From an archaeon (GTDB taxonomy: Archaea; Iainarchaeota; Iainarchaeia; Iainarchaeales; 1-14-0-10-31-34): a stretch of DNA of 32,000 nt. Position 1 is the stretch's first letter. Every line of letters starts with the position of its first letter. The stretch spans positions 90,001 to 122,000 of the forward strand of contig JAJRVL010000001.1 of NCBI GenBank assembly GCA_024277355.1, in the 5' to 3' direction. This document shows, piece by piece, positions 20,467 through 25,500 of this stretch. The translations under genes were made by a program, and so were the position numbers. The notes under the pieces were generated by a model that was not told where the DNA came from, searched no databases, and worked only from the letters and a program-made list of their open reading frames with translations.

Positions 20467-22545
20467 ATGGCAATAAAAGATTTGTATTATGAAATGGAAG
20501 ATAAATTTTATTCTTTAATTGACAAAACACCATTAACAAAAATAACTGACCCAATAGACAAAATTGTCCCTTCATTTATGGTTTTTATTGCAGTAATTTT
20601 AATTTTATTTGCATCAGGAATAATTATTTTAATGGGAGAAGGTTTAGGAGAAGAAAAAAATTTAAGTTTTAAATTAATTGATGAAGACGGACAGGCATTA
20701 AGCCAGACAGAAATAATTGTTTCATTTAATGATAAAACAGAAACATTAACTACAAATGCTTTTGGAAAAACAGGAAAAATTAAAGTACCATTAAATTCAA
20801 TGGTTTCATTTGAAGTAACTGAAACAGGATTTAAAAAAGAAACTGATTTATTTAAGTTTGCTGAAGAAGGCGAAAAAACAATTACCTTAAAATCAGGGAC
20901 AGCAGAACAAGGAAAAACAAGAACAATAAAATTATATGATAAAGAAAACAGAAGTGAATTAATTACAGGGAAAACTTATAGAGTTTCTTTTTCCTGCAGT
21001 AATTCAAAAGCAACTCCTCCTTCAACAATAACTGTTTCAAATGGAAAAGGAAACGTAATTGAACCAGCAGACTGTGGAATATTAACTGCTTCAGTTTCAG
21101 GAAACCATTCAGAAAGCATTTCAATGGATTTAGATGAAGAAAGCAATGCAGTTTACTTGGATTCATTAATTGAAGTTAATACTTTAATAGTTGAAGTTAA
21201 AAATGCAGACAATAAATCATTAGACGGAATAAAAATAAGGATTGATTCATTATATGACAATAATGACACTCCTGTTTTTGCAGACAGTTCTTATACTTTT
21301 AACGGTCAGGCAGAATTTGAATTAGAATTAGGAACCTACAAAATAACTGCTTTTGATGAAACAGGAAATTATTATGAAGCAAAAAAAACAATTAATTTTA
21401 ATGGAAATGATTTAATTAGAATTGAATTAGAAAGAGCAGTGCCTGAAGGCGGTTACTTAAAAATTAAAGTAATAGATAAAGACAATAAAAGCGAGTTAGC
21501 TGAAACAAAAGTAAAATTATATTTAGATAACGAAGTATTTGAAGAAAGAACAACTAATACAGAAGGAATAACAGAATTTTATTTAAAAGACAAAACATTG
21601 CTTTATGATGCAGTAATAGATAATGAACAATATATAGTAAAAAAAGTTTCAGGGCTTTCAGTTGATAATACAGCTGTTACTGTTGAATTAGAAAAATTCA
21701 CTGGAAATAATGCAGGCACATTAAAGATTAGGACAATAACAATTGACGGAACAAAAGAAAAGCCTGTAAGAAATGCAAGAATTGCATTATATTCAGTTGA
21801 AGAAGATGAAGTAATTCTTACAGGATTAACAGAAAAAATAACTGACATAAATGGTTCAGTTGAATTTGATAAAATAAAAAACGGAACATACAAAGCTTTT
21901 GCATATAAAGGAACTTCTTCAGGATGGAGTGATGCAGTATTATATGACAGAAGAAATTCAGATACAACAGGATTAACTGTAACAATGCTTATTCCAAACG
22001 GAACACTAAAATTAAATGTTGTGGATGAAGAAAACAATCCAATTCCTTTTACTACAATAACTTTTTTTGAAGAAGGAAATTCTAAAAAAATAAAAGCAGA
22101 TAAAACAGACAGCAATGGAAGCATTTTAATTGAAACAAAAGCAGACAAACAGATTTACTTTAAAGCAGAAAAAGAAAATTTCATGGATTATTACAGCAAA
22201 AATTACCCAATATTTGATTCAGCAACAGAAGAAACAATTCAAATGATTCCTGAAAAAAGAATGGAAAAACCAGAAATAAAAATTACAGGATTATTCAAAG
22301 GAAACGAAGTATTAAATGAAGTTTCTTCACTTGAAGCAGGAGACGAATATAAAGTAAAAATACAGTTAATTATTCCTGAAAAGAACTATGAAGAAGCAGG
22401 AATTCATTTCAGAGTAGGAAAAGATATTTTCTTAGAAAATGATTTTATTTTTATTAAGACAGTTAATGCACCAAATGCAATAACAAAAAAATTCACAATG
22501 TTTGATGAAACAAACTTAAATGACTCAAAGAAAAGCTCTACTTAA
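20467..22545 (+). CDS. Giant surface protein paralog 3 (GP3), N-terminal fragment (692 aa) ending at a premature in-frame TAA
   Basis: GGTGA lies 4 nt upstream of the ATG. N-terminal motif plus TM: MAIKDLYYEMEDKFYSLIDKTPLTKITDPIDKIVPSFMVFIAVILILFASGIIIL. Beta-sandwich repeats follow. The ORF stops in the middle of the conserved AGIHFRVG...AKW module. Confidence 0.85.
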   Translation: MAIKDLYYEMEDKFYSLIDKTPLTKITDPIDKIVPSFMVFIAVILILFASGIIILMGEGLGEEKNLSFKLIDEDGQALSQTEIIVSFNDKTETLTTNAFGKTGKIKVPLNSMVSFEVTETGFKKETDLFKFAEEGEKTITLKSGTAEQGKTRTIKLYDKENRSELITGKTYRVSFSCSNSKATPPSTITVSNGKGNVIEPADCGILTASVSGNHSESISMDLDEESNAVYLDSLIEVNTLIVEVKNADNKSLDGIKIRIDSLYDNNDTPVFADSSYTFNGQAEFELELGTYKITAFDETGNYYEAKKTINFNGNDLIRIELERAVPEGGYLKIKVIDKDNKSELAETKVKLYLDNEVFEERTTNTEGITEFYLKDKTLLYDAVIDNEQYIVKKVSGLSVDNTAVTVELEKFTGNNAGTLKIRTITIDGTKEKPVRNARIALYSVEEDEVILTGLTEKITDINGSVEFDKIKNGTYKAFAYKGTSSGWSDAVLYDRRNSDTTGLTVTMLIPNGTLKLNVVDEENNPIPFTTITFFEEGNSKKIKADKTDSNGSILIETKADKQIYFKAEKENFMDYYSKNYPIFDSATEETIQMIPEKRMEKPEIKITGLFKGNEVLNEVSSLEAGDEYKVKIQLIIPEKNYEEAGIHFRVGKDIFLENDFIFIKTVNAPNAITKKFTMFDETNLNDSKKSST
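20647..22255 (+). other. Array of about 5-6 beta-sandwich repeats in GP3 (approximate boundaries)
   Basis: Repeat ends such as VSFEVTETGFKKETDLF, YKITAFDETGNYYEAKK, YKAFAYKGTSSGWSD, IYFKAEKENFMDYYSK. Confidence 0.5.
22543..22545 (+). other. Single in-frame TAA splitting GP3; it aligns with a Ser (TCA) codon of GP2
   Basis: GP3 reads act TAA gga gac gca aaa tgg, and GP2 (near 15184) reads act tca gga aat gca aaa tgg. The reading frame is unchanged across the stop, since 22579-20467 = 2112 = 3 x 704. Confidence 0.9.
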
Positions 22546-22578
22546 GGAGACGCAAAATGGTTTAATTCAGTCTGGTTT

Positions 22579-25500
22579 TTGCCTGAAAAAGGAGTGCATA
22601 ATATTGAAATATTAATTAAAGTAAAAGAAAATGCAAGATTAGGACAGGAATTAAAATTAAAATACAGAGCTTATGCTGATACAGGTTCAAGAACTGAAAG
22701 AAATCCAACAGATGTTTCAGTTACTTCTTCTGAAGAATTAAATGCTGCTGTAAAAGAAAAAACTTTTACTGTAGGTGCAAATATTTTTTGTTCAAATGAA
22801 TTCTGTTTTAGTGCAACAATTTTAGATTTAAAAGAAGACATAATCAAGAAAGTTTCAAATTCTTATCAAACAAAAATCCTACAGAAATATGAATTACAGT
22901 TTGATATATTGAATAATAATAAAACAAAAAAACATTATGATGCAAAAATTCAGTTAAAAAATGAAAATGAAATGCTTAATTTTTTAGATTACAGAATAAG
23001 CAATGCTGATGCATTAACTAAAAGCGGAACAGCAGACAAAAAAGAATTACCTTGGGTTGAATTAGGAGACTTTGATCCAAATAACCATATAACAGGAAAA
23101 ACTGAATTTATTACTCAGGAAACAAAAACAGGAACAATAGATATTGTAATTGTTTCAAATCAGGAAATAGTATTTGAAAAAAACATTCAGATTGAAGTTC
23201 AGGCACCAAAAAACTTTTTAGTTGAATTTACTCCTGAAAAAATTCCTTCAACTACTTCATCTTTAATTGAGTTTACAGTATTTGACGAAGAAACAGGAAT
23301 TGAAATTGAAAATGCTCAAATAAAAGTAATTGACAGGTTTGGAGACTTAATTGCAGGACCTGAATTAACCGACAGAGAAGGAAAAACAGAAATAATTATT
23401 TCAGGACAGGCTCCTGACACAAAATTAATTTTCAGGACAGAAAAACAGGAATACAATATTTCAGAATTAGAAGTTTTTACTGATAACTCAATAATTGAAA
23501 TTACTCCTGATAGAATTGGAATTACATTAAACACTAAAACACAGAAGTCAAATGAATTTTCATTTAAAATAAAAAACATATTAGAATTTGACTTGGAATT
23601 AACTTCACTTAAATTTACTGGAAACTTCAGAGATTTATTAAATAAAAAAGCAATGAATGCATGGATGAATACAAATTACGGAAACATAATTATTCCTTCA
23701 AAAACAACAAAAGAAGTTAAAGTAAAAGGAATTTTATCTGATTATGCATTAAACAGAGAAGAAAGAGATATAGTTGAATTAGACTTGGAATTAGAGTTAT
23801 CTAATGGAGAAGCTTTCTGGACAAAAGAAATTCCAGCAAAAATTTCAATTGGAATAGGCGGAGAAGTAGATGATCCAAATTGTTTAACTTTAGAACAAAG
23901 AACATGGAAAACAGGAACAGAAGGAAGCAAAGTAAAAATAGACTTTGGAATAGAAAATGCATGTACAATTAACGGGAATCCAATTGAATTAAAAGACTTA
24001 GAAGCAAAAGTTAACTGGAATTCAAATCACATTGGAACTTATACTTTGACTTTTGAAGGAAATCCAGTTGAATTAAGGTCAGCTTATTACAGGAAATTAA
24101 CTGAAGAAATGGAAAACAGAAAATATACTGCAACACTTTCATTTGAACCAAACGGAGGAGTAAATGGAACAGCAAATGCAGAAATAATTTTAAGGGCAAG
24201 AAACCAGTTAGACGGAAAAGATGAATTTATTGAAGATAAAATTTCAACTGAAATAAAAATAATTAACTTAAAAGACTGCATTAAGTTTTCTAATACAGAC
24301 TTAAAAGTCAAAAAAGGAGAAATAACTTCATTTAATGTTTCAACTTTAGGTTGTGGAAGCAATGTTTCTTTTACTTTTGATTCAGAATTAAAATTAAACA
24401 GTAAATCTTTAACTTTAGGTTCAGAAGATTCAACTGAAATAAAAATTGATTCAAGAGATGCTTTATCAGGGAGATATTTAATTAAAGCAGAAGCAAAAGG
24501 AAATTCTTTAGCAACAAAAACACAAATACAAAATATTTTTGTAACAGTATTTGAAGATTCCTGTGTTGCATTAAGCAGATATGAATTCGATATTTATGAT
24601 TCAACTGAAAATGATTTTGATGGATATGACACAGCACAATTATACAATTACTGTGATGAAAAAGAATTATTAATTAAAGTTAACATGAAAGACTGGAGTT
24701 TAGCAATGAGAAATTCATTACTGCCTTCATTAATTGCATTTGGGACAGCAACAATAAGTGATAAGAGCAGCGATAAAGCAGATACAACTGATAATTCAAA
24801 TGGAGAAAAAGTATGGGCTGCAGAAAAAGAAAGCATTCCAACAACAGCATTTATAGGGTTGCCTTTTATTGGAGAAATTTCTCAGATTTTAAGCGGAGGA
24901 AACTTACTAAAAAGTGTTTTTGGTTCAGCTTCTCCATTTGAAATATTTGGAATAACTTTTGTTGCTTCAACTTTATATAATTACTTTAGTGCAGATGAAA
25001 TTGGATTTAATGCAATAGCAGATAATATTACAGTCGATGACATTGTATTATTAGAAGGAATAAAATATACTACAGAAAAAATTGAAGTATTAGATGAAGA
25101 AATAGGATTAGTTATTGACGGTCCTTTTTCCTGCTTTGATTCAGTTTCAAATAAAACAATTGACTGCTGGGATTTAACTTTTGTAAATGAAAATAAGTTG
25201 GTTCAGGAAGACGAATTTACTCCAATAATGAAAATACTTAAAACAAAATCAGCAGAACACTTCTGGAAAACAGATTACGACGGAGACTATTTCAATGAAA
25301 ATAAAGGATTCCTTGAAAAAATGTTTAACGGAGCAGACTTAGACTTAAAAAAACCATTACAAGAAAAAACAAATAAACAAAATGAAATATTACAATACAA
25401 TAAACTGCAATTTAATTCATTTAATCCAGAAGACACAACTTTAGGAAAACAAAATGCTTTTGGTTCATGTTCAATTGGAGAATTAACAGGAGAAACAGGA

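Follow-up and report, generated by a model that had tools for sequence, protein, structure and literature searches.

G:C-to-T:A transversion is the signature of 8-oxoguanine (8-oxoG) mispairing with A. In otherwise constrained prokaryotic genes, in-frame stop codons last no longer than polymorphisms do (Belinky 2021, PMC7918605). Here, we analyze GP3, the third of four tandem paralogues (GP1-GP4) encoding giant surface proteins in a DPANN archaeon, which is split by one in-frame TAA. The array lies in a window of 32,000 nucleotides (contig C10, positions 90001-122000, of G000, the genome studied), and the TAA, present in the sequence as given, occupies window positions 22543-22545 on the plus strand, with 22543 corresponding to C10:112543. 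The G000 assembly spans 1.13 Mb in 11 contigs at 28% GC and is rated 96% complete. The stop is ordinary in kind, being one unselected hit of the G:C>T:A type among dozens, and we lean toward an artifact, whether oxidative DNA damage or consensus error, rather than a fresh mutation as its source.

GP3 is listed as two open reading frames (ORFs) in one frame, 20467-22545 (692 residues) and 22579-27024. Straight translation joins them into 2184 sense codons with this single internal stop, as the initial annotation had it. The N-terminal piece covers 20467-22542 (+), and the C-terminal piece, 22546-27024 (+), comprises 1492 codons and a real TAA terminator but lacks a usable start. These 1492 codons contain no further stop, bearing out the earlier reading, have no other lesion and show no relaxed constraint, and the open frame is not a matter of chance because the two other frames hold 143 and 166 stops. 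The alignment around the stop is gapless to GP2, as first reported, and equally to GP1, GP4 and eight orthologues, with the TAA opposite a Ser TCA of GP2 (15186-15188). Inspection of the stop site found no repeat or slippery tract. A single-base change is supported; the annotated form of it, C to A at 22544 (TCA>TAA), is taken from a ~30%-identical paralogue and is weakly based.

Seven orthologues were examined, five from congeners (G001-G005) and two from genomes of the same family (G006 and G007). This comparison, proposed with the initial annotation, returned a single uninterrupted ORF spanning both GP3 pieces and a sense codon at the stop position in every one. The complete orthologues measure 2195-2314 residues; that of G005 stops at a contig end after 1650 residues, with no internal stop. 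Codon-level alignment places CAA (G002, G004 and G001), GAA (G003 and G007), AAA (G005) and TCC (G006) opposite the TAA, which is thus conserved in none of the seven, private to G000 and one base from a sense codon. The congener codons CAA, GAA and AAA point to codon position one (22543) as the changed base. Judged by the genome-wide signature described below, the codon before the change was most likely GAA, with G to T at 22543; TCA>TAA would still match that signature, and one same-family orthologue has TCC.

Downstream of the stop, GP3 shares 60-69% identity with the corresponding region of those congener orthologues that are complete (G001-G004). Among 322 downstream sites invariant in the six other orthologues, G000 is changed at 10 (3.1%), compared with 3.4-7.4% when the same test is applied to the intact genes of G001-G004. 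The marks of a decaying pseudogene are absent, with no extra stop or frameshift in the 1492 downstream codons and no relaxed constraint. If real, the stop would be too young to show relaxed selection.

A mechanical screen of the genome, which required a lone in-frame stop with 150 or more open codons both before and after it, revealed several other G000 genes interrupted without a start codon after the stop. In a glutamyl-tRNA synthetase (GluRS), a beta-eliminating lyase, a class I/II aminotransferase, a CARDB protein and a TctA transporter, a single Pfam domain spans the in-frame TAA, while in the NiFe hydrogenase large subunit the TAA lies between its two matched stretches. We then compared G000 by tblastn, in both directions and with identical filters, with two control genomes: G023, a single-contig genome of the same order (1.2 of 1.24 Mb used), and the congener G003 (400 kb used). 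Against G023, G000 yielded 19 flagged in-frame stops (17 TAA and 2 TGA), 15 of them judged credible; the reciprocal screen flagged one in G023, a shadow frame. Against G003, ~15 credible stops were found, 7 of them new, and the five flagged in the reciprocal screen were all shadow frames or upstream of a start. No credible in-frame stop was therefore present in the parts of either control screened.

The union comprises 25 in-frame stops in otherwise intact G000 genes (22 TAA and 3 TGA, TAG being absent) on nine contigs, so that at least 25 sites exist, or ~40 when the G003 result is scaled to the whole genome. GluRS, prolyl-tRNA synthetase (ProRS), deoxyhypusine synthase and nrdD, each present as a single copy in the assembly, all carry a stop, and essential genes are not depleted of hits. 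Frameshift-like breaks, taken as flagged, are not enriched, numbering five in G000 versus three in G023. The stop noted initially is upheld, but as one of at least 25 alike across the genome it calls for an explanation at the level of the assembly or lineage instead of the gene.

Two side observations came from the same screens. The five frameshift-like places in G000, where one G023 protein runs over two adjacent frames, are C11:14961-16654, C2:419013-420592, C9:10984-13058, C3:33980-34464 and C10:64776-65436. A conserved stretch of 30 residues (IFFAISDFSG...PLQKVVK) contains a TAG in both controls (G003:C1:350410 and G023:C1:814174) at a Tyr codon of G000; the stretch probably belongs to a shadow frame within a conserved cluster of genes.

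Ancestral codons were read from the five congeners, using concatenated 140-residue queries around the stops, and directly from G003. The ancestral codon is clear at 18 sites, and at every one of them the change is G:C to T:A, namely GAA>TAA at twelve and TCA>TAA and GGA>TGA at three each. All aligned congeners agree on GAA at C10 88114 (-), C2 178271 (+, HAM1/ITPase), C2 184470 (+), C2 246414 (+, ProRS), C2 524366 (+, TctA), C3 38261 (-, GluRS), C9 193 (-), C3 23768 (-, lyase), C2 89866 (-, CARDB), C11 52908 (+) and C9 104698 (-), as does the majority at C2 26042 (-). The TCA>TAA sites are C11 58238 (+), C8 1496 (+) and C9 18718 (-), and the GGA>TGA sites are C7 25669 (+, deoxyhypusine synthase), C6 4244 (+) and C9 81912 (+). 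At three further sites, GP3 (C10 112543, +), C9 57619 (+) and C2 266863 (+), the relatives are mixed with GAA among them. The ancestral codon is ambiguous at the remaining four in-frame stops, C9 102786 (+, hydrogenase), C9 98793 (-, aminotransferase), C4 20708 (+) and C2 410824 (-, nrdD).

Under a uniform substitution spectrum with G000 codon usage, G:C>T:A changes would account for 29% of nonsense hits, giving a probability of 0.29^18, or ~2e-10, for the 18 sites; AAA>TAA and TTA>TAA/TGA would be the commonest changes, and none was seen. A pure G:C>T:A model predicts 49% GAA>TAA, 25% GGA>TGA and 18% TCA>TAA, equivalent to 8.9, 4.4 and 3.2 of 18 sites, with 12, 3 and 3 observed. This model fits the observed proportions, and the sequence pattern is that of an unselected 8-oxoG-type burst private to the G000 assembly.

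We favor an artifact mainly because a clone with stops in GluRS, ProRS, deoxyhypusine synthase and nrdD should not grow; single-copy essential genes are hit as readily as others, so the sites appear not to have been exposed to selection. In the proposed mechanism, a G would have been oxidized to 8-oxoG and paired with A, putting G:C>T:A into the sequence, and the damage or consensus error would have become fixed in the assembly, for example through amplification from few templates or thin coverage. The living population would then lack the GP3 stop and would make GP3 as one protein of 2184 residues.

Several observations weigh against this account. 8-oxoG artifacts of library preparation normally remain below 20% allele fraction (Costello 2013, PMC3616734). 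Unless coverage or the number of templates was very low, such sub-clonal artifacts should stay out of the consensus when an assembly is 96% complete in 11 contigs; the G000 assembly is contiguous. For the GP3 stop in particular, CAA is the codon of the closest relatives, and a C>T change from CAA falls outside the signature. The predicted companion excess of ~200 missense and silent G>T/C>A changes is not seen above normal divergence. Private G>T/C>A changes did not exceed controls in 5710 codons compared with five congeners, where the expected excess is only ~1, or in 49,092 codons compared three ways with G003 and G023, where a roughly estimated excess of ~20 sits on a background of 250-320; a comparison of large-subunit rRNA likewise detected no excess, and all three comparisons had too little power. 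Neither the protein collection nor the metagenome contigs yielded a second assembly of the species: a scan of those contigs for the exact sequence pattern at the GP3 stop and a search with the 233-residue piece for short-contig fragments of the same species gave no match, and a protein search with read-through GP3 returned only relatives at 70% identity or less and the window's own gene call.

The stops could instead be real and very recent, carried by a mutator lineage that is poor in repair by the 8-oxoguanine (GO) system or oxidatively stressed, after a bottleneck; we regard this as possible, if on balance unlikely. GP3 would then be a 692-residue anchored stub whose loss the three intact paralogues could cover. 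The signature is the one left by mutY/mutM-type mutators, the contiguous assembly argues against very thin data, and prokaryotes commonly carry short-lived in-frame stop polymorphisms (Belinky 2021, PMC7918605). One hit also falls in a house-cleaning gene, where C2:178271 (+) is GAA>TAA at codon 35 of a HAM1/RdgB-type non-canonical purine NTP pyrophosphatase, an enzyme that cleans the nucleotide pool. G000 further lacks the second HhH-GPD glycosylase (MagIII/EndoIII-like, with an iron-sulfur motif) of its congeners G003 (G003:C4:34152-34871; L196 553-1272) and G002 (G002:C60:13904-14305), retaining only an Nth-like copy at C2:32361-32879; but this glycosylase is not a recognized 8-oxoG enzyme and has no counterpart in G005 either. 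A search for AGOG was uninformative, since its model matched no control genome. The hits in the four single-copy genes named above, from which a clone should not grow, and the even spread over essential genes speak against fresh mutation as they speak for an artifact. If the stops are real, those same genes need some rescue, which near-cognate tRNA read-through of UAA and UGA might supply, with GP3 made full length at reduced yield. Leakiness would be cheap in a genome of 28% GC, where the next stop after a leaky terminator is near, and frequent read-through of in-frame stops has been argued (Belinky 2021, PMC7918605). Against such tolerance, no UUA anticodon occurs among the 38 tRNA genes of G000 (ARAGORN with and without introns, and the Rfam tRNA model), TAA terminates 381 of 571 long ORFs, GP2 included, and the folding of the 120 nucleotides after the GP3 stop is no more stable than that of shuffled sequence (z = -0.68). 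The source codons GAA, TCA and GGA follow a DNA mutation signature rather than one amino acid, and relatives evidently do not tolerate in-frame stops, because the screened parts of G003 and G023 show none. Tolerated read-through is thus improbable, and so, to our judgment, is the fuller scenario of a DPANN archaeon with poor 8-oxoG repair living with dozens of UAA/UGA alleles through leaky termination, which we would put among the outside chances.

Dedicated recoding fares worse still. That TAA is a sense codon (Glu) in this lineage, or that GP3 is deliberately split or phase-variable, is extremely unlikely. Twelve of the 22 in-frame TAA codons do stand where all or most congeners have GAA, and TAA = Glu was weighed when nine sites had GAA in every aligned congener; it was rejected on the GGA>TGA and TCA>TAA sites and on the lack of any suppressor tRNA among those detected. 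Those TGA and Ser-derived sites, three of each and in the proportions of a DNA-level G:C>T:A process, misfit such a meaning, so the pattern reflects a transversion signature and not codon meaning. TAA moreover remains the main terminator, with its in-frame occurrences tracing to GAA and TCA and those of TGA to GGA, and the GP3 stop is absent from every orthologue, falls inside a beta-sandwich module and lacks any repeat or slippery tract. Programmed read-through finds no conserved stop, dedicated tRNA or stimulatory RNA structure at GP3. Of the three options first offered for the stop, a single-base nonsense change or an error is retained, given the intact orthologues and lack of decay, and designed read-through is not, given a private stop with no suppressor tRNA or structure.

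Re-initiation after the GP3 stop was also rejected. No in-frame ATG occurs for ~200 codons downstream, the candidate TTG at 22579 has no upstream purine run, and the candidate GTG at 22594, where the public gene call would start given its length of 1476 residues, is directly abutted by AAAGGA, leaving no working distance for a Shine-Dalgarno-like run. True GP starts carry GAAAGG, AGAGGG, GGTGA or GAAGGG 4-8 nucleotides upstream. The absence of a ribosome-binding motif of its own, noted earlier for the downstream fragment, is thereby borne out for either candidate start, and promoter and terminator signals are not above chance.

One additional Rfam tRNA match in G000, an intron-bearing gene at C6:3795-3887 (-), was missed by default ARAGORN and later typed Leu(caa); its loop and the G3:U70 pair in its acceptor stem indicate a tRNA-Ala(CGC).

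The four paralogues share a common architecture. GP1 (3536-10750, +; 2404 residues), GP2 (13119-20450, +; 2443 residues) and GP4 (27108-32000, +; 2368 residues in all, continuing past the window end) are intact. In GP3, the N-terminal piece carries a membrane anchor followed by Ig-like, CarboxypepD_reg, Big_1 and SpaA-type beta-sandwich domains (Pfam) and ends within a cohesin-like beta-sandwich module, while the C-terminal 1492 residues matched no Pfam or NCBIfam model. The module cut by the stop (22228-22926, +) is conserved in all four paralogues. Its 233 residues, modeled from a nine-sequence alignment, form a beta-sandwich with a mean predicted local distance difference test (pLDDT) score of 66, with best fold matches to cohesin modules and pilin/adhesin domains. 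The stop falls at residue 106 of 233, in a loop that follows five strands and precedes three, and a protein that stopped at this point would therefore carry an unfinished last domain.

Homologues of both GP3 pieces occur in 39-40 of the 41 genomes searched within the order, most often with several ORFs of 2200-2700 residues next to one another, and the two pieces are collinear end to end with single ORFs of the relatives. Protein-search matches are labeled Diapherotrites or Micrarchaeota archaeon, "Ig-like domain-containing protein", which places G000 among the DPANN archaea. By this architecture and conservation, GP3 belongs, as an ordinary gene under constraint, to a family of giant DPANN proteins that are membrane-anchored and surface- or adhesin-like. 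The best GP3 match in a different genus of the order consists of two ORFs (1868 or 1705 residues, plus 966 residues), located at G009:C1:250297-258721 and G040:C1:143559-151532, with the 966-residue ORF recurring in both genomes. These loci may represent a stable two-gene form of the family; their split point differs from the GP3 stop.

GP3 and six complete orthologues (loci L028-L034) share a conserved Cys-Ile-Lys/Arg-like C-terminal tail (window 27010-27021 in GP3), with the variants CILK, CITK, CIK, CIRD, CIKS, CIK and CIR, which could be a candidate processing or lipidation signal. Just upstream of the array, an exosortase/archaeosortase-family protein of 162 residues is encoded at 1974-2462 (+; TIGR04178, 37.5 bits), and the ORFs flanking it (589-1944 and 2492-3442) give weak sigma-70/ECF-like matches. 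Between GP1 and GP2, an ORF of 567 residues (10961-12664) has a weak type IV pilin-like N-terminus.

In practice, GP3 is to be handled as one intact orthologue of 2184 codons, neither as two genes nor as a recoding candidate. The genome that represents this species contains ~25-40 nonsense changes, all of one mutational type, by which gene calls, pseudogene counts, genetic-code screens and pathway reconstructions (aminoacyl-tRNA synthetases, nrdD and hydrogenase) drawn from G000 are misled. If the changes are real, they would represent a natural oxidative mutator burst in a reduced archaeal symbiont and would test how large a nonsense load can be borne.

Set beside other giant DPANN surface proteins, the GP3 family lacks a curated model, with its C-terminal 1500 residues unmatched in Pfam and NCBIfam, but resembles them in size (2200-2400 residues), in its N-terminal membrane anchor and CarboxypepD_reg/Big_1/SpaA-like beta-sandwiches, and in its tandem paralogue arrays, found in 40 of the 41 genomes of the order searched. 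The stop, as a single nonsense codon in an otherwise selected-looking gene, recalls those surveyed by Belinky 2021 (PMC7918605), which were kept only when common to at least two species, whereas the GP3 stop is private and accompanied by two dozen others of one mutational type. GO-system (mutY/mutM/mutT-type) mutators share the transversion signature, and a burst of nonsense alleles is expected of them; in G000, however, no repair defect was found, and the hits in single-copy essential genes are hard to square with a growing clone. Classic 8-oxoG library artifacts (Costello 2013, PMC3616734) are sub-clonal and prefer CCG, whereas the G000 changes stand in the consensus with no obvious context; like those artifacts, the G000 changes are exclusively G:C>T:A and confined to one data set, where they strike genes regardless of function and at frequencies that track the available targets.

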